Assembly (NCBI GenBank): GCA_031291995.1
Contig: JARLHZ010000022.1
Location: forward strand, 11,330-75,329
Length of the DNA stretch: 64,000 nucleotides
Source of the DNA: Candidatus Doudnabacteria bacterium
GTDB taxonomy: Bacteria; Patescibacteriota; Doudnabacteria; UBA920
Direction: 5' to 3'
Shown here: positions 7,997 through 44,186 of the stretch, piece by piece
How the letters are laid out: the number at the start of each line of letters is the position of its first letter
Numbering within the stretch: position 1 is the first letter of the stretch
The notes under the pieces: model-generated
Databases searched by the model: none
Told to the model about the DNA's origin: nothing
Seen by the model: only the letters and a program-made list of their open reading frames with translations
Position numbers and translations under genes: made by a program

Positions 7997-8614
7997 ATGA
8001 ACTCAAGGGATTATAAAATCCTCCGGCCCGGAAATTATTATCATATTTTTAATCGGGGGAATAATAAAGAAAAAGTTTTCCTTGATAGCCAGGATTACGG
8101 GGTCTTTTTGATACGTTTAAAAATGGCTTTGGGCTTGTTGCAACTTAGCTTTAACAAGAATAGCCGTGTTCGCATTAGGCCATTGCCCCAAGGATCTTTT
8201 ACCATAATTTGTTACTGTTTAATGCCCAATCATTATCATTTTTTGATAAGGCAAAATTCCGGTATTGGAATAGACAAGCTAATTGCGAAAGTCTGTACCA
8301 GCTATGCAAAATATTTTAATTTAAAGTACGGACATATTGGTAATGTCTTTCAAGATCGTTTTAAATCAAAATTAGTAGATAGTGACTCTTATCTTACCTA
8401 CCTATCCGCCTACATTCACAACAATCCGGATCAACCGCTGGATTGGGAATATTCCAGCTTTCGCGACTATCTTGGCTTAAGACAAGGTCAGATTTGCGAT
8501 AAAACCTTTTTGCTGGGAATGTTTAATAATCGTCCCGACGATTATAGAAAATTTGTGTTGGATTTTTCCGAAGAAGGAGCAGCTAAGATTAAAGATTTGC
8601 TATTTGAAGAATAA
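7997..8614 (+). CDS. REP-associated tyrosine transposase (RAYT; IS200/IS605-like HUH transposase family, COG1943)
   Basis: 205 aa. The N-terminal 'YHIFNRGNNKEKVF' compares with 'GRYHVxNRGNxRQxIF' in E. coli RayT. The HuH motif is 'LMPNHYHFLI'. Downstream Tyr candidates lie in 'TSYAKYF'. REP copies flank the gene on both sides. Confidence 0.8.
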   Translation: MNSRDYKILRPGNYYHIFNRGNNKEKVFLDSQDYGVFLIRLKMALGLLQLSFNKNSRVRIRPLPQGSFTIICYCLMPNHYHFLIRQNSGIGIDKLIAKVCTSYAKYFNLKYGHIGNVFQDRFKSKLVDSDSYLTYLSAYIHNNPDQPLDWEYSSFRDYLGLRQGQICDKTFLLGMFNNRPDDYRKFVLDFSEEGAAKIKDLLFEE

Positions 8615-9410: not shown

Positions 9411-11693
9411 ATGGCGAAAACCGTTTATCAGTCGGGCACCACTAAAGTCGTTGGCGTTATTTTTTTTATTTTAGTCAGCTTGAGCCTGCTTGCGCCCCTG
9501 TGGGTGTTTCGGGATCTGTTGTTTCCCTACGTGACCAGTAAGGCGTTTTTTTTCAGGATTTGCCTGGAGCTGGCTTTGCCGTTTTATGTTTATTTGTTGA
9601 TTGTCCGTCCCGAACTGCGTCCCAAATGGCGGCGGCAGTATTTGAACTGGTTGATGATTGTGTTTTTAATTTTGAATCTGGTTTCCGCCCTTTGGGGTGA
9701 TGTCCCGACCAGAAGCCTCTGGGGAAATTTTGAACGCATGGGCGGCGTTTATTACATTGCCCATTTAACATTGTTATATTTTTACGCGATTGCCCTGGCC
9801 CAAATGGGCGGGTCTTATTTTAAACGTTTTTTGCAGGTATTTTTAGCCGGCGCCATGGTGGTAACCATAAACGGAATTTTCGGCAAGCTTGGCCTGCCGA
9901 CTCTGGTAATGGATCCGTCCCTGCCGGTCCGCGTGTCCAGCACTTTAGGGAACCCGATATATGTAGGCAGCTTTTTAATTGTCCCGATGTTTTTGGCCAT
10001 GTTTTTTGGCGGCCAGGCGGAAGAGGCCTGGCAGAAGTACGGTTACTATTTTTCCGCTTTCTTATTTTTTGTGGGCATAGTGCTAAGCGGCACCAGAGGA
10101 GCCATGGTCGGCCTGATTGCCGGGGTATTTTTAGCCGCCGTTGCTTATGTGATTTTTAACCCCAGCCGCAAATTGAGGCTTTACGGCGCGGGTGCAATCG
10201 GTATATTTGTCTTGCTTTGCGCTTTATTGTTCGCATTTAACAGCAAGCTGCCGCAGGGTGATTTTCAGCGTCTGTTCCACTTAAAAGACAGCAACACCTC
10301 CGCCCGCCTGGTGCAGTGGGGCGTGGCTCTAAAGGGCTATAAAGAGCATCCCTGGTTCGGGGTCGGACCGGAAAATTATTACATTATTTCCAACAAATAT
10401 TACAATCCGGCTATTTTTGTGTTTGACCGCAGCTGGTTCGATAAGCCTCACAATTACTGGATAGAGGTTTTGGTGACCGATGGCGTGTTTGCCTTTATCA
10501 CATATTTGGGGATTTTGTTGTTGCTTGCCTGGGCGCTTTATAAAGGATACCGCGGAGGGTTTTTAACCCTGACGGAATTCTCCCTGCTTTTGGCGGCTTT
10601 GCTGGCCTATCAAATCCAAAACCTAACCGTATTTGACACCGTGCCGGCCAGCATCGCCTTTTACTGCCTAATGGGTTTGGCCGGATTTATTTGGGACGCT
10701 CAATTATCATCGAACGGCGGAAACGGCAAGGCCGCTCCGACGCCAAAGTTTAAACCTGCCGACCCTATTCTGCCCGCGGCCGCTTTTGGCGCGGCTCTGG
10801 TAGTTGCCGCTTATTTGGTTTACTCCACCAATATCGTACCGATGGAAATTGCCAAAGCCGTTAACTATGGATACGCCTACAGCAGCGTAGATCCGGCAAA
10901 GGCCGATGAATATTTCCAGCGCGCGGTAACTTTGCCGTTTAATTTTGACAAAACCCAGGTCGCCCAAAAATACGCGGAATTTTCCATAAACCTGGAACGT
11001 TCAGCAACTACTGCGACCCAAGCTACGGCTTCTAAGGTTAGCGATGAATCCATAGCATTTTTAAACGAGGCCTTGGCAACGGAACCGCAATACCCGATTT
11101 TATGGCAGGAATTGGCCGAGGTCTATTTGTTCAAGAATATTCAAAACGGACGGCTGTCCAGTGTGGATCCCCATGCCGAGATTGATATTCAAAAGGCTAT
11201 TGCCCTGGCGCCCGGGCGGGAAGAGCCATTAATAACCGAGGCGCAAATTCAGGCTTCGGAAGGGAACCTGACGGGTTCGGAAAATATTTTGAAAAATTTG
11301 GAAGCGGAGTTTCCAACCGATAACACCATTCCGGCGCAACTGGCTACCATTAACCGCTTGGGCGGGAAAGCGGACGAGGCGGCGGCGAGCATGCAAAAAG
11401 CTTTGGACGCCGGTTACGCCGTAACTTCGGCCAGCGAAGCGCAGTGGCTGGTGGATTATTATGGAAGTAAAAAACAGTACCCGCAGGCCCTGGAGCTGGA
11501 GCTGAAAATCCAGGCCATAGATCCGAATAATCCGGACGTCTTGCTCGGCCTGGCTCAGCTGTACGCGCAAAACGGGCAAAATACCGAGGCTATTGCCGCG
11601 GCTCGCGCGGCGGAACAGAGCGACCCGACCAAACAAAAAGAAATAGAAGCGTTTATTACTTCCTTGGGCGGCGCGGCTACTACAACTAAATAA
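9411..11693 (+). CDS. O-antigen ligase/polymerase-like (Wzy_C) membrane protein fused to C-terminal TPR repeats
   Basis: 760 aa with about 10 TM helices. It carries a Wzy_C-like loop and a C-terminal 250 aa rich in TPR-like helices (ALAPGREEPL..., AIDPNNPDVLLGLAQLYAQNGQNTEAI). Confidence 0.7.
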   Translation: MAKTVYQSGTTKVVGVIFFILVSLSLLAPLWVFRDLLFPYVTSKAFFFRICLELALPFYVYLLIVRPELRPKWRRQYLNWLMIVFLILNLVSALWGDVPTRSLWGNFERMGGVYYIAHLTLLYFYAIALAQMGGSYFKRFLQVFLAGAMVVTINGIFGKLGLPTLVMDPSLPVRVSSTLGNPIYVGSFLIVPMFLAMFFGGQAEEAWQKYGYYFSAFLFFVGIVLSGTRGAMVGLIAGVFLAAVAYVIFNPSRKLRLYGAGAIGIFVLLCALLFAFNSKLPQGDFQRLFHLKDSNTSARLVQWGVALKGYKEHPWFGVGPENYYIISNKYYNPAIFVFDRSWFDKPHNYWIEVLVTDGVFAFITYLGILLLLAWALYKGYRGGFLTLTEFSLLLAALLAYQIQNLTVFDTVPASIAFYCLMGLAGFIWDAQLSSNGGNGKAAPTPKFKPADPILPAAAFGAALVVAAYLVYSTNIVPMEIAKAVNYGYAYSSVDPAKADEYFQRAVTLPFNFDKTQVAQKYAEFSINLERSATTATQATASKVSDESIAFLNEALATEPQYPILWQELAEVYLFKNIQNGRLSSVDPHAEIDIQKAIALAPGREEPLITEAQIQASEGNLTGSENILKNLEAEFPTDNTIPAQLATINRLGGKADEAAASMQKALDAGYAVTSASEAQWLVDYYGSKKQYPQALELELKIQAIDPNNPDVLLGLAQLYAQNGQNTEAIAAARAAEQSDPTKQKEIEAFITSLGGAATTTK

Positions 11694-12902: not shown

Positions 12903-13925
12903 ATGTTTATGATTACACCACAAAAGACCGCGCTAATTACTGGCATCACCGGACAGGACGGCTCCTATTTGGCCGAATTTTTGTTGGCCAAGGGCTACTC
13001 GGTCCACGGGATTATGCGCCGGGCATCAACATTCAATACCGGGAGAATTGAACAAATTTATCAGGACCCGCATATGTCTCATCGCCGTTTATTTTTGCAT
13101 TACGGCGATTTATCCGACGCGTCAAATTTAAACCAACTTATAAAAACCATAAAGCCCATTGAAATTTATAACCTGGGGGCGCAAAGCCATGTCAAGGTCA
13201 GCTTTGAAATACCTGAGTTTACGTCCAATGTGGATGCCTTGGGGACTTTGAGGCTTTTGGACGCGGTGCGAGACAGTGGAGTCAAAACAAAAATTTATCA
13301 GGCCGGAAGCAGCGAAATGTTCGGGGAGGCGCTGGAAAAGCCGCAGACCGAGAAAACTCCTTTTAACCCAGTTAGCCCTTACGCGGCGGCCAAAGTTTTT
13401 GCCCATCAAATGTGCAAAATTTATCGGGACAGCTACGGGATGTTTATTTGCAACGGCATATTGTTTAATCACGAAAGCGAGCGACGGGGGAAAACTTTTG
13501 TCACGCGAAAAATTACCGCGGGGATAGCCGCGATTTTAGCCGGTAAACAGGACAAAATTTTTTTGGGGAATTTGGACGCCAAACGGGATTGGGGATATGC
13601 TCCCGAGTATGTTAAAGCCATGTGGCTGATGTTACAAAAAAGCAAACCGGACGATTATGTAATCGCCACGGGGGAAACCCACAGCATAAGGGAATTTTTG
13701 GATGTGGCTTTTGGCCTGGTGGGCAAAAAAAACTGGAAGCCATTTGTTAGTATTGACCCGGCGTATTACCGTCCGAGCGAAGTTGACTATTTGCTGGGTA
13801 ATGCAGGCAAGGCCAAAAAACAGCTCGGCTGGAGGCCAAAGGTCAAATTTAAGGAACTGGTCCGGATAATGATGGAAGCCGATTTACGGGATGCGGGCTT
13901 AAATCCGGCACAGTATTTAATATGA
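12903..13925 (+). CDS. gmd: GDP-mannose 4,6-dehydratase
   Basis: 340 aa. '[46 protein letters not shown]' is the canonical Gmd N-terminus. The SDR catalytic region and the C-terminal region are conserved. Confidence 0.85.
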
Positions 13926-14701
13926 AGCTGTTAACGTTGAATGTTTGGGGCGCAACGCGGGGCCAGGTGCTTTTTGATTATATCAGGGAGGAAGCCGAGG
14001 ATACCGATATTTTTTGTTTCCAGGAAATATTTTCCGCTTTGCCGGGCGCCCCTGAAATCAGCTCGGGCGGCAGGATGTTTTTATTTCAGGAGTTGTCCCG
14101 GATGTTGCCGGAATTTGCCGGATTTTACGACCCCCGCAGCAGCGAAGCGGATTTTAACGGCCCAATCGCGCAGCCAATCAGCCATGGGACAGCGATGTTT
14201 GTGCGCAAAAATTTGGAAATTTTAAATTATAGCGCGGAAATTATTGAGCAAACGCATAACGCTAATGATGCCGCGGAAGGCTGGACCAAAGCGCAAGTCT
14301 TAAAATTGGAACACTTGGGCGGGGCTTTTTTTGTTATAAATTTTCACGGCGTGGCACAGCCGGGCAACAAGCTGGATACTCCCCAAAGGCTGGCGCACGC
14401 GAAAAGGCTGAGGCTGATTTGGGACAGTTTGGATGGCGGGAAAATTTTGTGCGGGGACTTTAATATGTATCCGGAAATTGAGAGCATTAAACTTTTGGAG
14501 GAGCGGAGCCGAAACCTAATAAAGGAATTTAATGTTCAGAACACCCGTAATAATTTGTCCTGGGCCAAATATCCGGGCGGCAGGCAAACCTTCGCCGATT
14601 TCACTTTTGTCAGTTCGGAAATAAAAGTTAAAAATTTTGAGGTTCCGTATAATGAAGTTTCCGACCATTTGCCCATGATTTTGGAGTTTGATTTCCACTG
14701 A
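13922..14701 (+). CDS. Endonuclease/exonuclease/phosphatase (EEP) family protein
   Basis: 259 aa. It carries the 'LLTLNVWG' N-terminal EEP motif and a C-terminal 'SDHLPM' His motif. It is translationally coupled to gmd (ATGA overlap). Confidence 0.6.
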
Positions 14702-15846: not shown

Positions 15847-16788
15847 ATGGATTTAAAACGAGCAAAAATTTTATTGACCGGCGGCCACGGATTTTTGGGA
15901 GAAAAGGTCTACAGCGAGCTTTTAAAAGCGGGCGTTTTGGCTGGCAATGTAAGCCGACCCCGGAGTAAAGAGCTTGATTTTAGGCTGGCCTCAGCTTGCG
16001 ATAAAGCCGTTAGTGGGCGGGATTTGGTTATTCATTTGGCGGCCAGCGTCGGCGGCATCGGGTTTAACCAAAATCATCCGGGTCAATTATTTTATGATAA
16101 TGCCATAATGGGCATTAATTTAATCGAGGCTTCGCGCAAAGCCGGGGTTAAAAAGTTTGTACAAGTGGGGACTGTATGTGCTTACCCAAAAGTTCCGGAG
16201 CATATTCCGTTTCGTGAAGACGATTTATGGAAAGGTTATCCTGAAGAAACCAATGCCCCGTACGGTTTAGCCAAACTGATGCTTTTGGAAATGCTTCAGG
16301 CTTATCGGCGCGAATATGGCTTTAATGGAATTTATTTATTACCGGTAAATTTATACGGCCCCGGTGATAATTTTAAGCCGGAATCGTCCCATGTTATTCC
16401 GGCTTTGATAAAAAAATTTGTCGAGGCCGCCAAAAATCATAATTCGGAAGTTGTGGTTTGGGGTTCAGGTAAAGCGTCGCGTGAATTTTTATATGTTGAC
16501 GATGCCGCACGGGCCATTGTTTTAGCTGCGCGAAAATACGACAAGCCCTACCCTGTCAACATCGGATCCAGCAATGAATTAAAAATCAAGGAGCTTGTAG
16601 CGCTTATCGCAAAAATCACCGGGTTTAAAGGCGAGATTGTTTGGGACGCAGCCAAGCCCGATGGCCAACCCCGCCGTAAGCTCGACGTAAGTCGGGCCAA
16701 AAAGGAGTTTGATTTTATATCTAAAGTTGAGTTTAAATATGGTTTGGGGAAAACAATTGCATGGTATAAGCAAAATTACCATAAATAA
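15847..16788 (+). CDS. fcl: GDP-L-fucose synthase (GDP-4-keto-6-deoxy-D-mannose 3,5-epimerase/4-reductase). A ColC-type GDP-colitose synthase cannot be excluded.
   Basis: 313 aa SDR. 'KPDGQPRRKLDVSRAKK.FDF' compares with Fcl 'KPDGTPRKLLDVSRL'. The N-terminal NAD-binding motif is 'ILLTGGHGFLG'. It is adjacent to gmd. Confidence 0.7.
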   Translation: MDLKRAKILLTGGHGFLGEKVYSELLKAGVLAGNVSRPRSKELDFRLASACDKAVSGRDLVIHLAASVGGIGFNQNHPGQLFYDNAIMGINLIEASRKAGVKKFVQVGTVCAYPKVPEHIPFREDDLWKGYPEETNAPYGLAKLMLLEMLQAYRREYGFNGIYLLPVNLYGPGDNFKPESSHVIPALIKKFVEAAKNHNSEVVVWGSGKASREFLYVDDAARAIVLAARKYDKPYPVNIGSSNELKIKELVALIAKITGFKGEIVWDAAKPDGQPRRKLDVSRAKKEFDFISKVEFKYGLGKTIAWYKQNYHK

Positions 16789-18663: not shown

Positions 18664-19476
18664 ATGAAAGTCGTCATTTTGTGCGGCGGGGAAGGTACCC
18701 GCATGAAGGAAGAAACCGAATTTAAACCCAAGCCGCTTGTCTTAGTCGGTGGCAAGCCGATTTTGTGGCATATTATGAAAATGTATGCCCATTATGGTTA
18801 TAATGAGTTTATTTTGACCCTGGGTTATAAAGGCGAAATGATAAAGGATTATTTTTTGAACCAGAATCGATATCTTAACGATTTTACCTTGGACACAAAA
18901 TCAGGCAAAGTCGATTATCATAACAACGAGTGCGATGATTTTCAGATCACCTTCGTTGAAACCGGTCTAAAGAGTTTGACCGGAGAACGGGTCAGGCGCG
19001 CTAAAAAATTTATCGAAGGGGAGGATTTTATGGTCACATACGGCGACGGCCTGGCCAATATTGATATTGCCAAGTTGGCGGAGTTTCATAAATCGCAGGG
19101 GACATTAGGGACAATCAGCGGTGTCCATCCCATTACCAGATTCGGCGTGCTGTCCATAAACGAGGACAACAAGAAAGTGGAAAAATTCCGACAGTACGGG
19201 GTCATTGACGAAGATATGAGCCCCAAGCAGATACACGAAGCCCGTAAAAGTTATATGAATGATTTTATTAACGGCGGCTTTATGGTGTTTAAAAACAGTG
19301 TCCTTAATTACGTCCACGAAAACAGCATGATTGAGGAGGCTTTTCCTCTTTTGGCCAAAGAAGGCAAATTGTCAGTCTACGAGCATACCGGTTTATGGAA
19401 AGCCATGGACACTTACAAGGACGTGGAGGAAATGAATATACTGTGGCAAAAAGATCCGTTTTGGAAAGTCTGGTAA
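18664..19476 (+). CDS. rfbF: Glucose-1-phosphate cytidylyltransferase
   Basis: 270 aa, alignable end to end with Salmonella RfbF. '[41 protein letters not shown]' matches '[41 protein letters not shown]'. The C-terminal 'DPFWKVW' matches 'APWKTWE'. Confidence 0.85.
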   Translation: [270 protein letters not shown]

Positions 19477-19553
19477 GCCGCGGATTGGACGCGGATAGCT
19501 GCGCGGATTAAGCGCGGAATCTGAATTCGATTATAACTGCGGGCTTGGCATAA

Positions 19554-20540
19554 ATGAAAAACTTAAATTTTATGAGCGAGTCATGGTCGGGAAAAAACGT
19601 GCTGGTGACCGGCGGTACCGGTTTGGTCGGGTCGCATTTGACGGAAAGGCTTTTGGAGCTCGGAGCTAAGGTTTTTGTATTGGATATTGTTTTGGAAGCG
19701 AATTCTTATTTTGCTTCCAAAAAGCTGGCTGATAAAGCCGGACTTTTTATGGTTGATTTGCGGAATTTTGAGGGAGTGAAAAAAGTCATTGCGGAAAATC
19801 AGATCAACTACATTTTCCATTTGGGCGCGCAGGCGCTGGTGCCGGTGGCATTAGAACAGCCGATGGAAACTCTGGACGCCAATGTTATGGGTACGGTTCA
19901 TGTGCTGGAAGCGGCGCGGCAGCTGGGAACGGTGAGCGGCATAGTGGTTGCTTCATCGGACAAGGCTTACGGCAAGGATTGCATTAACGTCAAAGAAGAC
20001 CAAAAACTGGCCGGCGACCACCCTTATGATGTGTCCAAGACCTGTGCCGATTTAATTTCTACAACCTATTTTAAAACGTATAATTTGCCGGTGGCCGTAG
20101 CCCGCTTTGGCAATATTTTCGGGCCGGGCGATTTACATTTTGACCGGATTGTGCCGGGAGTTATGGAATCGCTGATAAAAAATCAGGAATTGCAAATCCG
20201 CAGCAATGGGAAATTTCGTCGGGATTATTTATACGTTAAGGACGTGGCGGAAGGCTATATCAAGATGGCTCAAAAAGCCGAAGAAATTAAAGGCGAGGCC
20301 TTTAATTTTAGCACCAACTGGAATTTTTCCGTCACTGAACTGGTGGAAAAAATCGGCCAGATTCTGGGACGGCAGGTTCATTACAAAATCTTGGACACCC
20401 AAAAAAACGAAATTCCCGAACAGAGTCTGAACTGGGATAAGGCCAAAAAAGTTTTGGGCTGGGAACCGGAATGTTCTTTTGAGAAGGGAATAGAGGAAAC
20501 CGTTAACTGGTATAATAACTATTTTTCCGGAAAGGATTAG
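19554..20540 (+). CDS. rfbG: CDP-glucose 4,6-dehydratase-like SDR
   Basis: 328 aa. 'PMETLDANVMGTVHVLEAARQLG...ASSDKAYG' compares with RfbG 'PIETYSTNVMGTVHLLE...TSDKCY'. The motif is 'VLVTGGTGLVGSHL'. Confidence 0.65.
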   Translation: MKNLNFMSESWSGKNVLVTGGTGLVGSHLTERLLELGAKVFVLDIVLEANSYFASKKLADKAGLFMVDLRNFEGVKKVIAENQINYIFHLGAQALVPVALEQPMETLDANVMGTVHVLEAARQLGTVSGIVVASSDKAYGKDCINVKEDQKLAGDHPYDVSKTCADLISTTYFKTYNLPVAVARFGNIFGPGDLHFDRIVPGVMESLIKNQELQIRSNGKFRRDYLYVKDVAEGYIKMAQKAEEIKGEAFNFSTNWNFSVTELVEKIGQILGRQVHYKILDTQKNEIPEQSLNWDKAKKVLGWEPECSFEKGIEETVNWYNNYFSGKD

Positions 20541-20543
20541 TCT

Positions 20544-21422
20544 ATGAAGCTTCTTCTAACGGGGGCGGGAGGGTTTATCGGAAAAAATTTGATCCAATCC
20601 GATTTGGCGAAAAAACATCAGATAATTGCCCCTTCTAGATTGCAACTGGATTTAATGGACGAAAAGGCGCTTAAAGAATTTTTTTTCCGAAACCAAGTTG
20701 ACTGCGTAATACACGCGGCCGGCAAGCCCGGGCACAGGAACGCTAAAGATCCGAGCAACATTTTTTACAGCGATACGCGGATGTTCCTGAATCTTTTACA
20801 AAATTCTGATCGCTACAAAAAAATGATTGTGTTAAGTTCCGGAGCAGTTTACGACCAGAGGTTTGCGATTGATAAGGTCAAGGAGTCGGACTATAAGTTG
20901 CGTCTGCCAGCTGATGAACACGCTTTATTTCGTAGGGTCTCGGCCGATTATATAGGGCGATCGGACAAAATCGTGGAGCTTAGGATTTTTGGCATCTTCG
21001 GTCCTTATGAAGATTATGCTATCCGCTTTATTTCCAACGCCATCTGCAAATGCCTGTTTAATTTACCCATTACCATCAAACAAAACCGGATGTTTGATTA
21101 TATTTATGTTAAAGATTTGCCCGGTATTTTAGAAAATATTTTACAAACTAGCGATATGAGCGGCGCTTATAATTTAACTCCCGATGAGCCCATTGAGCTA
21201 TTGCAGTTGGCGGAAATGGTAAAAAATTTATCCGACAAAAATGTGCCGATTATCGTCCAAAAATCCGGCATGGGGCCGGAATACAGCGGCAATAACGAAA
21301 AAATTAAACGGGACATTAATTACAATTTACGTCCCTTGCCGGAGGCAGTGGAAGAATTATATAAATGGTACAAAGAGAATTTTTCAACCCTAGATCAAAC
21401 AAAACTTTTAACCGATAAATAA
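20544..21422 (+). CDS. NAD-dependent epimerase/dehydratase family protein (candidate sugar 4-reductase/epimerase)
   Basis: 292 aa with a 'LLLTGAGGFIGKNL' Rossmann motif. It lies between rfbG and the NeuB-like gene. Confidence 0.55.
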   Translation: MKLLLTGAGGFIGKNLIQSDLAKKHQIIAPSRLQLDLMDEKALKEFFFRNQVDCVIHAAGKPGHRNAKDPSNIFYSDTRMFLNLLQNSDRYKKMIVLSSGAVYDQRFAIDKVKESDYKLRLPADEHALFRRVSADYIGRSDKIVELRIFGIFGPYEDYAIRFISNAICKCLFNLPITIKQNRMFDYIYVKDLPGILENILQTSDMSGAYNLTPDEPIELLQLAEMVKNLSDKNVPIIVQKSGMGPEYSGNNEKIKRDINYNLRPLPEAVEELYKWYKENFSTLDQTKLLTDK

Positions 21423-21434
21423 TTAATACTATAT

Positions 21435-22523
21435 ATGCAAAGAGATATATTTGAAGATCTGTTCGTTCTGGAAATGGCCAGTAATCACTTGGGAAGCCTG
21501 GACAGGGCGCTAAAGATTGTGGAGCAGCACTCTAAAATAGTTAGGTTCAACAACGTACGCGCGGCTATAAAGCTGCAATTCCGCGACGTTGATAATTTTG
21601 TACACAAGAATTTTACTGACCGCAAGGAAATTCGCTACATCCGCAGGACCCTGGAAACAAAAATGTCCAAAGAAGATTACGGGGTATTGGTGGAAGCCAT
21701 TAAAAAGAGCGGTTGCATCCCCATGGCAACGCCTTTTGACGAGAAGTCTGTGGATTTGTGCGTGGAATTTAACATGCCGATTATTAAGGTTGCCAGCGCG
21801 GACAGTAATGACTGGATGCTCTTGGAAAAAATCGCTTCGACCAAAAAACCTGTTATTGTATCCGTAGGCGGATTGTCCCTAAAAGATATGGATGATATGG
21901 TGACTTTTTTTGAGCACCGCAATACGACCCTGGCCATTAACCACTGTGTTGCCGCATATCCCCACGAAGACTCGGAATGCGAGTTGGACCAGATAGATTT
22001 CCTCAAAAACCGCTTCCCTGACCACACTATCGGCCTATCCACACACGAATATCACGATTGGTATTCTTCGCTGCTTATCGCTTATGGCAAAGGCGCCCGC
22101 ACTTTTGAGCGGCACATAGATATTGACGAAGGCGGGGCGGAAGTGGCAAAATATTCTTCCCTTCCGGAACAAATAGATGTTTGGTTTAGAGCTTACAACA
22201 AGGCCAGGGAAATGTGCGGAACTGCCAAAACTGAACGCAGGGTGCCGTTGGAACGGGAGTCAAAATATTTGGACGGTTATATTCGAGGGGTCTATGCCAA
22301 GCATGACCTTAAGAAAGGGGATATTTTGATGGAAGAGGATATTTATATGGCCATTCCCCTCCAGAAAGGCCAGATTTCCAGCCGGGAATTAATGCTCGGA
22401 AAGTATGGGCATAAAATGATTGCCGACTGTAAAGCCGACGAGCCAATTAAAATTGATATAATAGACACTCCTTACGCCCATAATGAAGAATTGAAAAAAA
22501 CAATTTATGGCAGGGGTCTCTAA
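21435..22523 (+). CDS. NeuB-family (N-acylneuraminate/nonulosonate synthase-like) protein with C-terminal SAF domain
   Basis: 362 aa. 'MATPFDEKSVDLCVEFNMPIIKVASADSNDWMLLEKIASTKKPVIVSVGGLS...INHCVAAYPHEDSECELDQIDFL...IGLSTHE' follows the NeuB TIM-barrel pattern. The C-terminal SAF is 'LKKGDILMEEDIYMAIP'. Confidence 0.7.
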   Translation: MQRDIFEDLFVLEMASNHLGSLDRALKIVEQHSKIVRFNNVRAAIKLQFRDVDNFVHKNFTDRKEIRYIRRTLETKMSKEDYGVLVEAIKKSGCIPMATPFDEKSVDLCVEFNMPIIKVASADSNDWMLLEKIASTKKPVIVSVGGLSLKDMDDMVTFFEHRNTTLAINHCVAAYPHEDSECELDQIDFLKNRFPDHTIGLSTHEYHDWYSSLLIAYGKGARTFERHIDIDEGGAEVAKYSSLPEQIDVWFRAYNKAREMCGTAKTERRVPLERESKYLDGYIRGVYAKHDLKKGDILMEEDIYMAIPLQKGQISSRELMLGKYGHKMIADCKADEPIKIDIIDTPYAHNEELKKTIYGRGL

Positions 22524-22529
22524 AAACAG

Positions 22530-24338
22530 ATGATTAAAGTTTCCGATTATATTTTCCATCGATTGCATAAAGTCCACGGTGTGGATCAGGTGTTTATGAT
22601 TACAGGAGGTGGCGCCATGCATTTAAACGATGCCATTGGCCGTTGTGAAGGCTTAAAATTTATCTGCAACCACCATGAACAAGCCTGCGCCATTGCCGCG
22701 GAGGGTTATGCGCGCACCACAGGAAAGTTGGCGGCGGTAAATGTCACCAGCGGTCCCGGAGGTACGAACACCTTGACGGGCGTGCTTGGGCAATGGACCG
22801 ATTCCGTACCTGTAATTTATATTTCCGGCCAGGTCAAGTTTGAAACTACAATTTCGTCCTGTCCCGATTTGGGTTTGCGCCAGCTTGGCGATCAGGAATT
22901 TAATATAATTGACGTTGTCCGGCCATTCACTAAATTCGCCGCAATGGTCACGGATAAAAACGATATTAAAAAATTTCTTGACCAGGCTGTCCATTTAGCC
23001 ACGCATGGACGTCCCGGGCCGGTATGGCTGGATATCCCCATGGACGTGCAGGGGGCTCTGGTGGATGAAAAAAAATTAGGTGAATTCGCTATGACGGAAA
23101 GTTCCGCGGACGCAGTTCCACTTGAGTCGGAAGTTGGCAAAGTCATCGAATTGCTTGGGCAAGTCAAGCGGCCGGTGCTGGTTTTGGGGCGGGGCGTGCG
23201 AATTGCCGGAGCGCGGGATTTAGCCTTGGCATTGGCCAAGAGGATAGGCCTGCCTTTGCTCGGTACTTTTAACGCTTATGATTTGATTCCGGCCAGCCAT
23301 CCCAATTATGCGGGAAGGATTGGGACTTTAGGCGATCGCGCCGGAAATTTCGCCCTGCAAAATTCCGACTTGTATATTTCCGTGGGCAGTCGTAATAATT
23401 TGCGGCAGGTCAGCTACAACTGGCAGTCATACGCACGGGTCGCAAAAAAAATTGTCGTGGATATAGACCCTGCCGAACTTGCTAAACCTACCTTGATTCC
23501 CGATATCCCAATTTTGGCCGATGCTAAAGTTTTTTTGGAATTGCTCGGCGGGAAATTAAAATCCGCTACCTTGCCGGATTGGTCGGAGTGGAATGCCTGG
23601 TGTCAAAAACGCAGGAAAAGTTATCCCGTGGTCTTGCCCGAATATAGTGATGATAGCATGGGGGTCCATCCTTACTATTTTATGCAACGCCTGACCCAGG
23701 CCTTGGAGCCGGGAGCGGTGGCGGTGGCCGGGGATGGGACTGCCTGCGTCGCTTTGTTCCAGGCCGGGGAAGTCAAGGAAGGCCAGACGATTTTTTGGAA
23801 TTCCGGCTGCGCGGCTATGGGTTATGATTTACCGGCTGCCATCGGCGCGTGTATTGCAAATAAAAAGAGCACCGTATGCATAGCGGGGGACGGCAGCCTG
23901 CAGTTAAATATCCAGGAACTGGAAACAGTGGCTTTTAATAAACTTCCGTTAAAAATATTTTATTTGAATAACGGCGGCTACCAGTCCATTAAGCAGACCC
24001 AGGCCAATTATTTTCCGGATAATTTTATAGGTTGCAGCCCGGATAGCGGGATTGGCTTTCCCGATATTGTCAAAGTGGCTCGGGCTTACGGTCTAAAAAC
24101 CGAAATAATCGATAATCATAAAAATTTGGATAAAATTGTCCGGGCGGTACTAGAGGCTGAGGTTCCGGTGGTTTGTGAGGTAAGGTTAAGGGCTGATTAT
24201 GTTTTTTCCCCTAAATTATCTTCAAAAAAATTATCTGACGGAAGGATGATTTCCAAGCCCTTGGAAGATATGTATCCGTTTTTAAGCCGCGAAGAATTTA
24301 AATCTAATATGATAATTGAGCCTTTAGCGGAGGAATAA
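22530..24338 (+). CDS. Thiamine-diphosphate-dependent acetolactate-synthase-like enzyme (YerE-like candidate sugar C-branching enzyme)
   Basis: 602 aa with the three-domain ALS/IlvB architecture. The TPP motif is 'IAGDGSLQLNIQELET...NNGGYQSI'. The N-terminal 'ITGGGAMHLNDAI' carries the PYR-domain glutamate region. It sits inside a CDP-deoxysugar gene set. Confidence 0.75.
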   Translation: MIKVSDYIFHRLHKVHGVDQVFMITGGGAMHLNDAIGRCEGLKFICNHHEQACAIAAEGYARTTGKLAAVNVTSGPGGTNTLTGVLGQWTDSVPVIYISGQVKFETTISSCPDLGLRQLGDQEFNIIDVVRPFTKFAAMVTDKNDIKKFLDQAVHLATHGRPGPVWLDIPMDVQGALVDEKKLGEFAMTESSADAVPLESEVGKVIELLGQVKRPVLVLGRGVRIAGARDLALALAKRIGLPLLGTFNAYDLIPASHPNYAGRIGTLGDRAGNFALQNSDLYISVGSRNNLRQVSYNWQSYARVAKKIVVDIDPAELAKPTLIPDIPILADAKVFLELLGGKLKSATLPDWSEWNAWCQKRRKSYPVVLPEYSDDSMGVHPYYFMQRLTQALEPGAVAVAGDGTACVALFQAGEVKEGQTIFWNSGCAAMGYDLPAAIGACIANKKSTVCIAGDGSLQLNIQELETVAFNKLPLKIFYLNNGGYQSIKQTQANYFPDNFIGCSPDSGIGFPDIVKVARAYGLKTEIIDNHKNLDKIVRAVLEAEVPVVCEVRLRADYVFSPKLSSKKLSDGRMISKPLEDMYPFLSREEFKSNMIIEPLAEE

Positions 24339-24340
24339 CC

Positions 24341-25015
24341 ATGAAAACTTTATTTATTACCGGAGGCCATGGGGGCATTGGACAGGCTATTGTTCAGGAA
24401 TTTCAGGCGCGGAACTATAAAATTATCTCGCCAAGCAGTCGGGAGTTGGATTTATCCCAGGTCGAGTCTATTAAATCCTATTTTTCAGCTTCGGTTCCGG
24501 ATATTGATGTGTTAGTTCATAGCGCGGGCATAAATTTTCCCAAACCCCTGGAGGAAATTAATGGTGAGGAATTTGAGAAGACTCTTGCCGTAAATGCAAC
24601 CAGTTTGTTTTATTTGGCGCAGATTTTTTTGCCCCGCCTTAAAGCAAAAAATGGCGGACATATTTTGGCCGTAAATTCAATCTGGGGAATTATTTCTAAA
24701 CCAGGGCGGCTGTCTTACGCCATGTCAAAACAGGCCTTGAACGGTTTGGTAAAAACATTGGCCTTGGAGCTGGCTCCCCATAATATTAAAGTCAACTCCG
24801 TCGCTCCCGGCTTTGTCGATACAAAACTTACTAGGCAAAACAATACCGAGGAGCAGATTAAATCGATTGTAAAACAGGTACCACTTGGCCGCTTGGCTAA
24901 GCCCGAAGAGATCGCAAGGGCCGTTTATTATTTATGCTCAGATGATAACAATTATATCACTGGACAAAATTTGGTAATTGACGGCGGTTTTACCGCTGGG
25001 ATTTTTGGAAATTAG
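24341..25015 (+). CDS. Short-chain dehydrogenase/reductase (SDR, classical)
   Basis: 224 aa. The motifs are 'LFITGGHGGIGQAI', 'YAMSKQALNGLVKTLALELA' (YxxxK) and a C-terminal 'VIDGGF'. A strong GGAGG Shine-Dalgarno sequence lies upstream. Confidence 0.75.
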   Translation: MKTLFITGGHGGIGQAIVQEFQARNYKIISPSSRELDLSQVESIKSYFSASVPDIDVLVHSAGINFPKPLEEINGEEFEKTLAVNATSLFYLAQIFLPRLKAKNGGHILAVNSIWGIISKPGRLSYAMSKQALNGLVKTLALELAPHNIKVNSVAPGFVDTKLTRQNNTEEQIKSIVKQVPLGRLAKPEEIARAVYYLCSDDNNYITGQNLVIDGGFTAGIFGN

Positions 25016-25019
25016 TTTT

Positions 25020-26159
25020 ATGGGACAATTTGATTTTAAAATCCAGGATGAAAGTTTTACCCTGCCGGATAAATATTCGGAGTTGTCTGATTTTAAAGTG
25101 GATTCAGTTCCGCGCCCTTATAAAGTCGCCTGGTGGGACGAGGATCCGGCGCAAATCATTAACAGGGAAATGGCTGACGCAGCCGGGAATGTTTTGGTCA
25201 TTGACGAAAAATTGCGGCAATTATTTTCCGCCGCATTTGGTTTTTCACCGGAGAGAATTTTTTCTTTGGTTGCGGACGAGGAGCATAAAATTTTAGATAC
25301 AGCCGCCGCTTTGTTTGATTTTTTGCAGGCTCGGGGCTTTTCTAAAAGCGATAGGCTGATAGTGGTTGGAGGCGGAGTAACACAGGACGTTGGCGGGTTT
25401 GTCGGTGGCATTTATAAGCGCGGCCTAAACTGGGTATTTTACCCGACAACTCTTTTATCAATGTGCGACAGTTGTATAGGCGCCAAAGCGGGATTAAATT
25501 TTAAGGGCGTCAAAAATCAGCTGGCAATTTTTTCCGCTCCAAGGGAAGTGGTAGTAAACCCTCAATTCCTCAAGACTTTAAATGAGCGGGAATTCCATTC
25601 CGGTTTGGGGGAAATCCTAAAGTTGCATGTTACCGGAGGCGGGGGATTGCTGGAAAACTACCAAAAAATAGTGGCTGACGGCATAGTTAAGGATTTTACC
25701 GGATATAAGTCCCTCATCTTCGGATCGCTTTTTGTAAAAAAAGCCGTCATAGAGAAAGATGAATTTGAACAGGGTTTAAGGAAAAGTCTAAACTACGGCC
25801 ACACCTTTGGCCACGCTATTGAGACGCTGACCGGTTATAACATTCCTCATGGCCAAGCAGTCGCGGCCGGCATGATTATTGTTAACCAACTCGCACATGA
25901 GCGCGGGTTGCTGCGTGCGGATAAAAATCTTTTGATGCAAAATTTATGCCTTAAGCTTCTGGATGCGCCAACCAGGCGCAAAATTAAATGTTTATCCGGA
26001 GATAATTTTCTTGAATTATTGAGGCAGGACAAGAAAGCTTCGTCCGGCCGGATTAACCTGGTGTTTTTAAAAGACTTAGGAGAAACAATTTTTGTAAATT
26101 ATGAAATTAATAAAGACCTGTCCAAATCGGTGGATAAGGTAATTACGAGTATCTTTTGA
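25020..26159 (+). CDS. 3-dehydroquinate synthase-like (sugar phosphate cyclase superfamily) enzyme
   Basis: Start set at the ATG at 25020 (MGQFDF...) to avoid overlap with the SDR. 'VVGGGVTQDVGGFVGGIYKRGLNWVFYPTTLLSMCDSCIGAKAGLNF' compares with AroB '[46 protein letters not shown]'. The motif 'EFHSGLGEILKLHV' compares with 'ELASGLAEVIKYGI'. Confidence 0.7.
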   Translation: MGQFDFKIQDESFTLPDKYSELSDFKVDSVPRPYKVAWWDEDPAQIINREMADAAGNVLVIDEKLRQLFSAAFGFSPERIFSLVADEEHKILDTAAALFDFLQARGFSKSDRLIVVGGGVTQDVGGFVGGIYKRGLNWVFYPTTLLSMCDSCIGAKAGLNFKGVKNQLAIFSAPREVVVNPQFLKTLNEREFHSGLGEILKLHVTGGGGLLENYQKIVADGIVKDFTGYKSLIFGSLFVKKAVIEKDEFEQGLRKSLNYGHTFGHAIETLTGYNIPHGQAVAAGMIIVNQLAHERGLLRADKNLLMQNLCLKLLDAPTRRKIKCLSGDNFLELLRQDKKASSGRINLVFLKDLGETIFVNYEINKDLSKSVDKVITSIF

Positions 26160-26248
26160 CGATTAATGGTGTCTGCGACAGGCGCGATTTTGCTTAAACC
26201 CGTTTTTTTACTATAATTATGTAGGTGTTTATAATTATTTACGAAACA

Positions 26249-27472
26249 ATGCCGACAAAAATACAGTCGAATATGAGAGTCCCTTACGGCCTGTCCGTAC
26301 ATGGGCAGGAAGAAATAGACGCTGTTGTTGAAGTTTTAAAAGGCAATACCGCCCTGGGCGACAAGGTGAAGGAGTTTGAAAATAAGGTTGCCAAAATGTT
26401 CGGGAAAAAGTATGGGGTAATGGTTAACTCCGGCTCCAGTGCCAACCTTTTGGCTCTTGAACTTCTTAATTTACCCCGCGGCAGCGAAGTCATAACTCCC
26501 GTTTTAACTTTTTCCACCACTGTCGCGCCGATTGTCCAAAAGGGCTTGGTTCCGGTGTATGTCGATATCAACCCGCAAACATATATTGCGAACCTTAACC
26601 AGGTCGAAAAAGCCATCGGCAAAAAAACCAAAGCTTTGATGATCCCGTCGTTAATGGGGAACATTCCAAACTTAAAGCGACTGCAGGCAATAGCGAAAAA
26701 ATACAAACTTTGGCTGATTGAAGATTCCTGCGATACCTTGGGCGGCAGTTATAACGGGCGGCCGAGCGGGACATATTCGGATATTTCCACAACAAGTTTT
26801 TACGGATCTCATGTTATTAACGGCGCGGGAGGGGGAGGCATGATTTGCGTTAATAATCCGGAGTGGGTGGATCGTTTGGTGGTACTTCGGGGTTGGGGCA
26901 GGCAGTCTTCTTTGTTTGGCGAAAAATCCAATTCCGAATTGCTCGCCAATCGTTTTCAAGGAAAAATTGACGGTACCCCTTACGATAATAAATTTATTTT
27001 CAGTGAAATCGGCTATAATTTTTTACCTCTGGAAATTTCGGCCGCCTTCGCGCTGGTCCAGCTAAAGAAGTATCCAAAATTTTTGGCTCTCCGCCAAAAA
27101 TATTTTGCGGAAATGTACAAATTTATAGAAAAAAAACATCAAAAATATTTTCTCCTGCCCAAACAAACGCCCAATACCAAAACCGCCTGGCTGGCTTTCC
27201 CCCTTATTATCAAACCCGGCGCGCCGTTTACCCGCCTGGACATAGTGACGTTTTTGGAAAATAATAATGTCCAGACCAGACCGGTGTTTACCGGAAGCAT
27301 TTTAAAGCAGCCCGGCTTTAAAAATATCAGGCATCGCAATGCCGTCAATAATTTTCCCCATTCGGAAGACGTCATGAAGAACGCTTTTGTCGTAGCCTGC
27401 CATCATGGCTTGTCGGATCGGCAAATTAAATATTTGCAGGAATGCTTTAATGAATTTTTAGCAGCTTTTTAA
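26249..27472 (+). CDS. RfbH/ColD-type PLP/PMP-dependent sugar 3-dehydrase (DegT family), lacking the E1 [2Fe-2S] cysteine motif
   Basis: The first ATG is at 26249 (the ORF track starts at a GTG, 26225). 'NSGSSANLLALELL', 'WLIEDSCDTLG', 'TTSFYGSHVING' (His where aminotransferases carry the Schiff-base Lys) and 'QTRPVFTGSILKQPGF' parallel RfbH/DdhC. The region matching the RfbH Cys cluster (CYCAPGCDNTCGKRF) reads 'WGRQSSLFGEKSNSELLANRF'. Confidence 0.7.
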   Translation: MPTKIQSNMRVPYGLSVHGQEEIDAVVEVLKGNTALGDKVKEFENKVAKMFGKKYGVMVNSGSSANLLALELLNLPRGSEVITPVLTFSTTVAPIVQKGLVPVYVDINPQTYIANLNQVEKAIGKKTKALMIPSLMGNIPNLKRLQAIAKKYKLWLIEDSCDTLGGSYNGRPSGTYSDISTTSFYGSHVINGAGGGGMICVNNPEWVDRLVVLRGWGRQSSLFGEKSNSELLANRFQGKIDGTPYDNKFIFSEIGYNFLPLEISAAFALVQLKKYPKFLALRQKYFAEMYKFIEKKHQKYFLLPKQTPNTKTAWLAFPLIIKPGAPFTRLDIVTFLENNNVQTRPVFTGSILKQPGFKNIRHRNAVNNFPHSEDVMKNAFVVACHHGLSDRQIKYLQECFNEFLAAF

Positions 27473-28443: not shown

Positions 28444-29493
28444 ATGGTGCCAAAAAAATTAGTAGTCTTGGATTTTGACGAGCCGCGCCTGCTGGAGAAT
28501 AAGATTTTCAATCCGGCGGAAGCCATAAAAGTCAGCCATACTATTTTGCCGACTTGTTATTTGCAGCGCCAAGCCGCGTTGCTGGGCATTGCTATGGTGA
28601 CCCCCGACGTCTACCTGCGCGGCCGTCCGCTTCCGGCTTTAATGCTGTCCCACCTGCATACCTCCTGGACCAAACGGCTGATTGGCGCCGGCGCCCGCCC
28701 GATAATTTTGACCTGCCAGGAGTCGCCGTTCATTGCCACGCGGTTTTACGCTAACTTAAAAAATTACAGCGGACTATATAAACATTCCTTTGTGTTCGCG
28801 GGAATGAGAAAAAGGTTGTCGTCGAAAACCCAGTATCGCCAGATGTTTTTCCCCCAGGCCTATAACCCGGCGGTTATTGCGGAAGTGCCGTTCGGACAAA
28901 GAAAATTTTTGACAATGATCAGCGGCAATAAGCGGATGGGCAATTGGAAAAAAACTTTGCTGATAAAATTCATGTATGGCTGGGGTATAAAAGAAATTTA
29001 CTCATTGCGCCAGCGCGTAATTAATTTGATGGCCACCCGCGGGGGTTTTGACCTGTATGGCGTTGGCTGGGACAGGGGCGGCTTAAATCCGGGCGACACG
29101 TCCAATATAAAAAAAGTTTATCGGGGTAAAGTGGACGACAAAACCGAAACACTGCGGCAATACAAGTTCGCTTTTTGTTTTGAAAACAGCGTTTTTCCCG
29201 GCTACGTCACGGAAAAAATTTTTGACGTGATGTTCGCCGGCTGCGTGCCGGTGTATAACGGCGCGCCGGACATTAAAAATTTTGTGCCGGCCGGCGCCTT
29301 TATTGACGTCCGCGATTTTTCCGGCCTGGACCGGCTGGCGGAGTTTTTGGAAAATATGGACGAATCCGTTTATAATAGATATATGGCAAACATAAAAAAA
29401 TATTTGGCTTCGCCGGAGTTTTTAAAATTTTCCCAGGAAAATTTTGCTGAAAATATTTTGGGGATTTTGGAACAGGAGTTCAATAATGAGTAA
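28444..29493 (+). CDS. GT10-like alpha-1,3-fucosyltransferase family glycosyltransferase
   Basis: 349 aa. 'YKFAFCFENSVFPGYVTEKIFDVMFAGCVPVY' matches the FucT signature (FxxxFENS...GYxTEK). The locus also carries a GDP-fucose supply (gmd and fcl). Confidence 0.6.
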   Translation: MVPKKLVVLDFDEPRLLENKIFNPAEAIKVSHTILPTCYLQRQAALLGIAMVTPDVYLRGRPLPALMLSHLHTSWTKRLIGAGARPIILTCQESPFIATRFYANLKNYSGLYKHSFVFAGMRKRLSSKTQYRQMFFPQAYNPAVIAEVPFGQRKFLTMISGNKRMGNWKKTLLIKFMYGWGIKEIYSLRQRVINLMATRGGFDLYGVGWDRGGLNPGDTSNIKKVYRGKVDDKTETLRQYKFAFCFENSVFPGYVTEKIFDVMFAGCVPVYNGAPDIKNFVPAGAFIDVRDFSGLDRLAEFLENMDESVYNRYMANIKKYLASPEFLKFSQENFAENILGILEQEFNNE

Positions 29494-32393: not shown

Positions 32394-32642
32394 ATGATGG
32401 CTCTGAAACATTACATTTCCATTGCCCGGCCTAACCATTGGTTTAAAAATATTTTTATTTTGCCCGGGGTCATTTTGGCGACACTGCTGACCCATAAGTC
32501 CTGGCAGGAGGTTATTTTTAATTTATTTGTCGGTTTTTTGGTGGCATGTTTAATCGCTTCGGCAAATTATACCATTAACGAATGGCTGGATGCGGAGTTT
32601 GACCGGTATCATCCTTTAAGAGAGTTAATATCCCAATGGTGA
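32394..32642 (+). pseudogene. N-terminal fragment of a UbiA-family prenyl/phosphoribosyltransferase (decaprenyl-phosphate phosphoribosyltransferase-like), truncated at 82 aa
   Basis: 'ARPNHWFKNIFILPGVILA...ASANYTINEWLDAEFDRYHP' carries the first Asp-rich motif (NxxxDxxxD). The gene stops after 82 aa and is overlapped by the next gene. Full-length homologues are about 290 aa. Confidence 0.4.
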
Positions 32643-41129: not shown

Positions 41130-41170
41130 ATATTAAGGCTGAAATAGTTATATAATACAATCAATCGAAG

Positions 41171-41200: not shown

Positions 41201-41204
41201 TATT

Positions 41205-42563: not shown

Positions 42564-42567
42564 ATTT

Positions 42568-44151: not shown

Positions 44152-44186
44152 ATTTAAAATATTTTATTTAACGCCGCTTTTAATTT

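Follow-up and report, generated by a model that had tools for sequence, protein, structure and literature searches.

What might a NeuB-family synthase and an enzyme resembling 3-dehydroquinate synthase (DHQS) be doing together in a bacterial glycan locus? The question is raised by a 64-kb stretch of a Candidatus Doudnabacteria contig (JARLHZ010000022.1, positions 11,330 to 75,329, assembly GCA_031291995.1), hereafter the window, in which both genes lie at 21435-26159. A preliminary description of this interval proposed either that the locus makes an unusual nonulosonate or cyclitol-type constituent, or that the two enzymes were recruited to a new nucleoside diphosphate (NDP)-sugar chemistry. 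The interval contains four co-directional genes and not two: a NeuB-like synthase, a thiamine diphosphate (ThDP)-dependent enzyme, a short-chain dehydrogenase/reductase (SDR) and the DHQS-like enzyme. The ThDP gene (22530-24338), which lies between the NeuB-like and DHQS-like genes and was not mentioned in the preliminary description, is the key to the locus. Read from this gene outwards, the block is probably a YerE-type branched-sugar cassette in which the NeuB-like synthase would supply the α-keto acid donor. The proposed recruitment to NDP-sugar chemistry is thus essentially supported, since the ThDP enzyme, the SDRs and the candidate genes for a cytidine diphosphate (CDP)-4-keto-3,6-dideoxyhexose together correspond to a known class of acyl-branched sugar clusters.

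The gene block and its carboligase

The four genes form part of an operon-like block of eight at 18664-27472, all on one strand and separated by intergenic gaps of 1-77 nt:

18664-19476, plus strand: glucose-1-phosphate cytidylyltransferase-like protein (CDP-glucose formation); PF00483; TIGR02623 (G1P_cyt_trans) 268 bits, cut-off 300.
19554-20540, plus strand: CDP-glucose 4,6-dehydratase-like extended SDR; PF16363 and PF01370; TIGR02622 (CDP_4_6_dhtase) 218 bits, cut-off 278.
20544-21422, plus strand: extended SDR (SDRe), candidate YerF-like reductase of the branch C1' ketone; PF01370.
21435-22523, plus strand: NeuB-family synthase of the phosphoenolpyruvate (PEP)-condensing type, distinct subfamily; PF03102, E=3.5e-38.
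22530-24338, plus strand: YerE/JanthE-like ThDP-dependent carboligase, putative branching enzyme; 602 aa with N, M and C TPP_enzyme domains.
24341-25015, plus strand: short classical SDR (SDRc), partner of the DHQS-like gene and proposed ketoreductase on its product; PF13561 and PF00106, with TGxxxGIG and YxxxK motifs.
25020-26159, plus strand: DHQS-like NAD+/metal-dependent enzyme of putative phospho-lyase type; PF01761 and PF24621, each E=1e-31.
26225-27472, plus strand: E1/RfbH-like 3-dehydrase, pyridoxamine phosphate-dependent, Cys-less subtype; PF01041; RfbH NF011936 340 bits, cut-off 423.

The best match of the ThDP enzyme in the PDB is JanthE (8rph, 401 bits), which it matches over its full length including the C-terminal extension, followed by PpYerE (5ahk, 239 bits) and acetohydroxyacid synthase (234 bits). 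The Glu of the HEQ motif and the GDG...NN motifs are present, and the protein scores under the cut-offs of the acetolactate synthase equivalog models. JanthE is a YerE-like enzyme that couples α-keto acids to ketones and whose physiological substrates are unidentified (PMC12188165). In Janthinobacterium sp. HH01 it is encoded, as in the window, right after genes for a glucose-1-phosphate cytidylyltransferase, a 4,6-dehydratase and a DegT protein. The two systems differ in their ThDP motif (CDG in JanthE, GDG in the window) and in their donor supply, as the JanthE locus has an acetaldehyde dehydrogenase/DmpG aldolase pair of the erwiniose type and neither a DHQS-like nor a NeuB-like gene. The expectation that the JanthE locus would also hold the DHQS module was therefore not borne out, and the link between the two loci consists of the ThDP enzyme and the logic of the cluster only.

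This logic has been formulated for clusters that combine genes for CDP-4-keto-3,6-dideoxyglucose with a ThDP enzyme, a reductase and an aldolase: the aldolase makes a functionalised α-keto acid, the YerE-like enzyme decarboxylates it and adds it to the CDP-4-keto-3,6-dideoxyglucose, and the reductase finishes the branch (Steitz et al., 2022; PMC9306805). Like the clusters for yersiniose, erwiniose, caryophyllose and gastriose, the window carries, within a surface-glycan locus, a YerE-like ThDP carboligase and NAD(P)H reductases, along with candidate genes for a CDP-4-keto-3,6-dideoxyhexose and for an enzyme that could form a functionalised α-keto acid. Either of the two SDRs of the block (20544-21422 and 24341-25015) qualifies as the reductase of such a cluster, SDRe being the candidate for the reduction of the branch. 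Published clusters of this type use a pyruvate aldolase (HpcH/HpaI or DmpG type), whereas the window has the NeuB-family synthase, the DHQS-like enzyme and the short SDR. Indeed, no pyruvate aldolase was found in the window, which otherwise contains all elements of the scheme, and the NeuB-like gene stands in the vacant slot. Such a role is plausible, as the generic chemistry of its family, the condensation of PEP with an aldose to a 3-deoxy-2-ulosonic acid, also yields an α-keto acid.

Among the CDP-sugar proteins, the 4,6-dehydratase-like one shows the YxxxK motif and an S-D-K triad, and the best PDB match of the RfbH-like protein is the E1 enzyme 3bcx (CDP-6-deoxy-4-hexulose 3-dehydrase, 240 bits), with His in place of the pyridoxal phosphate (PLP)-binding Lys (SFYGSH). 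Among the cassettes described below, the RfbH/E1-like proteins fall into two subtypes, both with His for the PLP Lys: one carries the iron-sulfur (Fe-S) motif WGRDCWCxPGxDNTC and the other is Cys-less, with WGR[SQ]SSLF. The Cys-less subtype occurs in the window, in Legionellales and in a Rhizobium metagenome-assembled genome (MAG), and it comes without an E3 gene, which suggests a ColD-like turnover on a CDP-sugar. In loci of the Elusimicrobia type, the same cassette contains orthologues of SDRe; in those of the Legionellales type, another extended SDR (c10) takes this position.

The NeuB-like synthase and the DHQS-like enzyme

The NeuB-family synthase that the preliminary description recognised is confirmed by a hidden Markov model (HMM) assignment of the kind it had suggested (PF03102 for this protein, PF01761 for the DHQS-like one). 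In alignments with NeuB and PseI, the metal-binding His residues of 'GLSTHE' and 'ERH' and the PEP-binding motifs E-x-x-x-NH, K-x-Q and K-x-x-S are conserved. The SAF domain that had been ascribed to the protein is a mixed case: PF08666 is undetected, but the C-terminus aligns to the C-terminal domains of 8h2c, 4ipi and 3g8r, including those of PseI and NeuB, and the precomputed domain annotations of two homologues with 72% identity include PF08666. Beyond these shared features, the scores fall far below the equivalog cut-offs (TIGR03586 PseI 127 bits, cut-off 340; TIGR03569 NeuB 117 bits, cut-off 400), and the best PDB match is the uncharacterised 3g8r with 206 bits, against 90 for PseI and 75 for NeuB. 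Additionally, the position of the N-acetyl-binding Arg of NeuB is occupied by Ile. The subfamily is strongly conserved, with more than 120 homologues (clusters) at 70-85% identity.

The neighbours of this subfamily were surveyed in an unbiased metagenome scan that yielded 80 NeuB-like loci, 54 of them with at least one partner gene. Among these 54 informative loci, 43 have a ThDP neighbour. In the window, the absence of nearby partners reported in the preliminary description is borne out, as no CTP_transf_3 (NeuA), Epimerase_2 (UDP-GlcNAc 2-epimerase) or hexapeptide acetyltransferase gene was found among the open reading frames (ORFs) scanned across its 64 kb, the set on which all statements about missing partner genes rest. 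The further claim that the usual partners are missing therefore stands for the NeuA type but overlooks the ThDP enzyme, the SDRs and the CDP-4-keto-3,6-dideoxyhexose genes; the usual partners are absent because the NeuB-like and DHQS-like enzymes have different ones, which are present. Thus, although it shares the PF03102 barrel, the metal His pair, and the PEP motifs with NeuB, PseI and LegI, and its C-terminus aligns with their SAF-like domain, the NeuB-like protein belongs to a separate, highly conserved subfamily that neighbours ThDP, short SDR, DHQS-like or HAD genes and not NeuA-type partners; its consumer would be the ThDP carboligase and not a CMP-transferase. A pathway to an unusual nonulosonic acid of the sialic, legionaminic or pseudaminic type, with NeuA and further partners encoded elsewhere in the genome, would agree with the Pfam family and the C-terminus, but the low scores, the Ile and the neighbourhood, as seen in the window and across the subfamily, make it very improbable.

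For the DHQS-like enzyme, the motifs quoted in the preliminary description are present in the ORF, and its position between an SDR and the RfbH-like gene is as described there. The ORF was listed from a TTG at 24978, inside the preceding gene; the ATG at 25020, 4 nt past the SDRc stop, is the likelier start. The protein is 100% identical to one from a Candidatus Doudnabacteria MAG that is named 3-dehydroquinate synthase at NCBI. Its best NCBIfam match is TIGR04425, a model for an AroB-related putative sugar phosphate phospholyase, at 309 bits and hence below the cut-off of 400, and the aroB model TIGR01357 gives 265 bits (cut-off 305). In the PDB, true DHQS enzymes score best (156 bits), ahead of ValA (4p53, 110), DOIS (2d2x, 91) and DDGS (5tpr, 76).

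A comparison of the metal- and NAD-binding residues with AroB, also suggested in the preliminary description, shows that all metal, phosphate-cage and carboxylate-binding positions of DHQS are kept. Two alignments, one of 20 family members and one of 5, show no variation at R134, D150, K156, N166, E198, K201, K240, R254, N258, H261, H265, H277 and K338/339, and these residues line up with the DHQS motifs. By motif spacing, we take their Aspergillus nidulans equivalents to be R130, D146, K152, N162, E194, K197, K250, R264, N268, H271, H275, H287 and K356, respectively. Accordingly, the pair K240 and R254 corresponds to K250 and R264 of AnDHQS, which bind the carboxylate of 3-deoxy-D-arabino-heptulosonate 7-phosphate (DAHP). 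The retention of this pair, together with the closer relationship to DHQS, sets the protein apart from EEVS, DOIS and DDGS. With the full DHQS active site in place, including the carboxylate ligands and the phosphate cage, the predicted pocket points to a DAHP-sized carboxylated sugar phosphate as the substrate.

The likeness to AroB (5eks, 3clh, 1dqs) thus covers the fold family, the sites for NAD and metal, the residues that cage the phosphate and the Lys/Arg pair that binds the carboxylate. The differences from it are the sub-cut-off score, a DSCIG signature where AroB has DSSVGG, an N-terminal extension in most members, the pairing with an SDR in glycan cassettes and a reaction that, in our proposal, would be an elimination without cyclisation. 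The Cys of DSCIG (residues 149-152) adjoins the substrate-binding Asp; it is invariant in five aligned cassette proteins, divergent ones included, is found in 75 of 82 clustered members, and is absent from AroB.

A motif scan of species-representative genomes found 290 with a relative of this enzyme, a result at odds with the earlier remark that DHQS-like enzymes are rare in glycan loci. The best 80 loci, from more than 12 phyla, were fetched. They bear on the possibility that the gene is simply the housekeeping aroB, for which the DHQS domains, the full catalytic complement and the NCBI name would speak. Along with its score under the aroB cut-off, its DSCIG motif and its N-terminal extension, the protein has a glycan-cassette context that is conserved in at least 66 of the 80 genomes, and the window contains no shikimate gene among the ORFs scanned. 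In none of the 80 loci does an aroK adjoin the DHQS-like gene, as judged with an E. coli AroK query. Likewise, no canonical aroB is found among the DHQS-like genes outside cassettes, all of which carry the family motif and none of which came with a match to AroK (the same query). A housekeeping aroB is therefore scarcely credible here.

A genuine cyclase has more in its favour. In such a pathway, the NeuB-like and DHQS-like enzymes would act as a pair analogous to DAHP synthase and DHQ synthase and form a dehydroquinate- or quinate-like carbocycle, which SDRc would reduce and which would end up in the glycan (compare caryose and bradyrhizose). The catalytic, phosphate-binding and carboxylate-binding residues are all invariant, genuine DHQS enzymes are the best structural matches, and the nearest NCBIfam model is named for a cyclising phospholyase. 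Moreover, some O-antigens of lipopolysaccharides contain carbocyclic sugars, and the formation of dehydroquinate after the loss of phosphate is largely spontaneous. The evidence on the other side comes from the gene neighborhoods.

Gene neighborhoods in other genomes

Among the 80 fetched DHQS-like loci, 69 have SDRc as the gene directly preceding the DHQS-like one, and in most loci the end of SDRc and the beginning of the DHQS-like gene share 4 nt. A ThDP enzyme homologue is present in 66, usually as the direct neighbour of the SDRc-DHQS pair. By the test of co-conservation that had been proposed for it, this gene block is thus strongly co-conserved. Homologues of the 4,6-dehydratase (54 loci), the cytidylyltransferase (49), the RfbH-like protein (47) and the NeuB-like synthase (32) accompany them. 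Clustering of the ORFs gave a matching picture and added a recurrent FGGY kinase, an HpcH/HpaI aldolase, HMGL-like aldolases, a second extended SDR, a GtrB-like family 2 glycosyltransferase (GT2) and GtrA. Two arrangements exemplify these loci. The Elusimicrobia-type order is cytidylyltransferase, dehydratase, RfbH, SDRe, SDRc, DHQS, FGGY, NeuB and ThDP, and the Legionellales-type order is cytidylyltransferase, dehydratase, RfbH, SDR, ThDP, SDRc, DHQS and HpcH aldolase. Many loci end in the GtrB-like GT2 and GtrA genes, and the end product there is therefore taken to be a nucleotide sugar.

The carriers belong to Pseudomonadota (Legionellales), Elusimicrobiota, Spirochaetota, Bacillota, Myxococcota, Nitrospirota, Actinomycetota, Bacteroidota, Verrucomicrobiota, Chloroflexota, Patescibacteria and Melainabacteria, as well as to a Methanomassiliicoccaceae archaeon. 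The MAG of the latter (L008) holds SDRc, DHQS, ThDP, RfbH, cytidylyltransferase and dehydratase genes, which suggests either an inter-domain transfer or a binning error.

The slot of the aldolase was examined in those DHQS-like loci, 55 in all, that extend for 5 kb or more to each side of the gene. It is filled in 47 of them, by a NeuB-like synthase in 25, by HpcH/HpaI in 15 and by an HMGL-like aldolase in 7 (one locus with both NeuB-like and HpcH/HpaI genes is counted as NeuB-like). The FGGY kinase accompanies the NeuB-like synthase in 23 of these 25 loci and is never found with HpcH alone; NCBIfam gave no useful specificity for either the kinase or the HpcH aldolase.

The view from the NeuB-like side is similar. 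Of five close homologues, those of Termitidicoccus mucosus, a Chloroflexi MAG and a third contig lie with ThDP, SDRc and DHQS genes; the contig of the fourth has ThDP, HAD phosphatase, methyltransferase and NeuB genes, without DHQS or SDRc, and the fifth has the NeuB-like gene alone. In the metagenome scan, the 80 NeuB-like loci include 43 with ThDP, 34 with a DHQS-like gene and 13 with the HAD homologue, which in these 13 takes the position of SDRc and DHQS beside ThDP and NeuB; DHQS-like and HAD genes occur together in none, and the FGGY kinase is likewise found in none of the 80. This mutual exclusivity is as expected if the product of the NeuB-like synthase is phosphorylated and loses its phosphate either by elimination or by hydrolysis. 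The HAD gene beside a NeuB-like synthase is reminiscent of Neu5Ac-9-P and KDN-9-P synthases, which pair with HAD phosphatases. As a rule for all cassettes, the replacement of DHQS by HAD was ruled out by the co-occurrence of the two in 12 kinase-containing loci.

One metagenomic locus (L154:3617-14070) contains cytidylyltransferase, dehydratase, SDRe, NeuB, ThDP and RfbH genes as in the window, without SDRc and DHQS; a hydrolase of the metallo-β-lactamase fold lies upstream and a methyltransferase follows the ThDP gene. Since the order of the window is otherwise kept, SDRc and DHQS behave as an insertable two-gene module.

These neighborhoods also bear on whether the enzymes work together at all. 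Two independent pathways could lie side by side, the ThDP enzyme using pyruvate to make a yersiniose-type C2 branch and the NeuB-like, DHQS-like and SDRc enzymes making a separate constituent. YerE itself uses pyruvate, and donor specificity is unreadable from the sequence. Additionally, a Brachyspira pilosicoli locus (L082, 4592-12402) has the SDRc-DHQS-FGGY genes with no ThDP gene within 10 kb, so that the module can feed another consumer. However, ThDP and SDRc-DHQS genes co-occur in most of the 80 loci and across many phyla, the ThDP enzyme accompanies the NeuB-like synthase also where the DHQS-like gene is absent, and no CMP- or NDP-transferase that could activate a second product is found in the window. 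Independent pathways are therefore quite improbable.

The same Brachyspira locus contains two HMGL-like aldolase genes and three CTP_transf_3 genes (KdsB/NeuA type), and the product of the module may be CMP-activated there. Adjoining CMP-transferases were considered as general evidence for an ulosonic acid product, but they are confined to the Brachyspira loci and count for little.

A predicted route to a branched sugar

What is observed are sequence homologies, conserved catalytic residues, a gene order and co-conservation across phyla; from these we infer all substrates and products of the following route. The cytidylyltransferase, the 4,6-dehydratase and the His-type 3-dehydrase would generate a CDP-4-keto-3,6-dideoxyhexose. 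In parallel, the NeuB-like synthase would condense PEP with a small aldose phosphate, in the simplest case a tetrose 4-phosphate, to a phosphorylated 3-deoxy-2-ulosonic acid of the size of DAHP. The DHQS-like enzyme would then expel the terminal phosphate through NAD+/metal-dependent oxidation and β-elimination, and the co-translated SDRc would reduce the ketone, so that the α-keto acid is kept and the terminus becomes deoxy, as in a 3,7-dideoxyheptulosonate-type acid. The YerE/JanthE-like ThDP enzyme would decarboxylate this ulosonate and attach the resulting acyl anion at the C4 keto group of the CDP-sugar, giving a caryophyllose-like C6 branch, and SDRe would reduce the new side-chain ketone. 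Finally, a glycosyltransferase of the surrounding Wzx/Wzy-type locus would install the branched sugar. We lean towards such a product, that is, a CDP-activated 3,6-dideoxyhexose with a long branch at C4 that derives from a C-acyl group, in the class of yersiniose, erwiniose, caryophyllose and gastriose.

The steps of this route differ in how firmly they can be proposed. It is fairly likely that the DHQS-like enzyme acts on the phosphorylated product of the NeuB-like synthase: the DAHP-type pocket, the HAD replacement in sister cassettes and the occurrence of a kinase where the NeuB clade differs all suggest that this product is a phosphorylated, DAHP-sized ulosonate and the substrate of the DHQS-like enzyme. 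That the outcome would be a non-cyclised, deoxygenated keto acid is put forward more tentatively; we favour it because the only conserved consumer, the ThDP carboligase, needs a 2-keto acid, and because the HAD variant leaves an open-chain keto acid. The chemistry resembles, by analogy only, that of RmlB and RmlD, in which NAD+ oxidation, β-elimination and ketoreduction by a separate SDR lead to a terminal deoxy group, with the difference that here a free ulosonic acid would lose a phosphate as the leaving group, through an enzyme of the DHQS fold.

The same considerations tell against the cyclase. Cyclisation would remove the 2-keto acid that the ThDP carboligase, the only conserved coupling enzyme, requires in its donor, and nothing in the conserved cassette encodes a ligase or acyltransferase by which a free carbocyclic acid might be attached. 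Additionally, the HAD phosphatase that replaces SDRc and DHQS beside the same ThDP/NeuB pair suggests that the DHQS variant feeds the ThDP enzyme too. For these reasons a carbocycle is unlikely, and the cyclitol or carbasugar envisaged in the preliminary description is disfavoured despite the intact DHQS active site.

Several points weigh against the open-chain route. A complete DHQS catalytic set might simply perform the complete DHQS reaction. According to Bartlett and Knowles, the released enol-pyranose intermediate of DAHP reportedly cyclises spontaneously, so that an outcome without cyclisation calls for a further explanation. The donor of the ThDP enzyme could be pyruvate. The Elusimicrobia-type module also holds an FGGY kinase, and the 12 loci in which HAD-like and DHQS-like genes occur together all contain the kinase; the simple alternative of HAD or DHQS thus holds only for kinase-less cassettes like that of the window. 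The CDP-sugar enzymes of the window all score under the NCBIfam equivalog cut-offs, although the cytidylyltransferase, dehydratase and RfbH models are their best matches. In contrast to YerE-type clusters, the 3-dehydrase of the window lacks the Fe-S Cys motif of E1, and no E3 reductase gene was found among the ORFs scanned, so that deoxygenation at C3 would have to be ColD-like. Finally, an in silico survey of more than 200 YerE-like clusters (Krug et al., 2024, as cited in PMC12247030) may already list such clusters.

As to the arrangement of the kinase-containing loci, the HAD-like protein (26-32% identical to the HAD of L088) is encoded just past the FGGY kinase in L001, L007, L025, L037, L043, L055, L057, L058, L064, L067, L071 and L008.

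The locus is therefore of a known kind, that of the YerE-type clusters for acyl-branched sugars, and its NeuB-like, DHQS-like and short SDR genes, as a putative module for keto-acid supply and tailoring, are not described in the literature searched; full-text searches for DHQS-like or NeuB-like genes in branched-sugar or O-antigen clusters returned nothing relevant. Acyl-branched sugars are seldom found on bacterial surfaces, where they act as antigens, and there is demand for their ThDP enzymes as biocatalysts for tertiary alcohols. For the vast majority of predicted YerE-like enzymes the structure of the product sugar is unknown (PMC12247030), and the route outlined above suggests, in testable form, which donor a large YerE/JanthE-like group may use in vivo. 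The cassette occurs in hundreds of genomes, including those of Legionellales, gut Elusimicrobia, Brachyspira, Verrucomicrobia, bacteria of the candidate phyla radiation (CPR) and a relative of methanogens. If the route is correct, the DHQS fold gains phosphate elimination as a deoxygenation step, and the NeuB family gains the supply of a keto acid to a carboligase. If the enzyme were a cyclase instead, a carbasugar or a carbocycle-bearing sugar would be the product of a mobile cassette whose carriers span more than 12 phyla and include an archaeon as well as CPR bacteria. The names '3-dehydroquinate synthase' and 'N-acetylneuraminate synthase' are misleading for these proteins and would wrongly credit genomes with shikimate and sialic-acid capacity.

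The eight-gene block is embedded in a long plus-strand glycan locus with genes for Wzx, a Wzy_C-TPR protein, GT2, GT4 and GT10 enzymes, methyltransferases and an initiating sugar transferase. A GDP-mannose 4,6-dehydratase, a further SDR epimerase/reductase and a GT10 fucosyltransferase-like protein are encoded at 12903-13925, 15847-16788 and 28444-29493, and fucose or another 6-deoxyhexose is probably a further constituent of the same glycan. The Wzy_C-TPR protein (9411-11693, 760 aa) is a fusion of an O-antigen ligase/polymerase-like domain to C-terminal tetratricopeptide repeats, here in a CPR (Doudnabacteria) genome. Between the GDP-mannose 4,6-dehydratase and glycosyltransferase-like genes lies a PF03372 endonuclease/exonuclease/phosphatase gene (13922-14701), an unusual site for this family, and an 82-aa ORF at 32394-32642 weakly matches the start of the UbiA prenyltransferase family and may either be left over from a gene or encode a small membrane protein. 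An IS200-like transposase gene (7997-8614) upstream of the glycan locus and genes for a PIF1-like helicase, RadC and an N6/N4 DNA methylase (39081-45842) downstream of it may represent mobile-element or defence-related flanks. Type IV pilus genes are found at 53759-57892.

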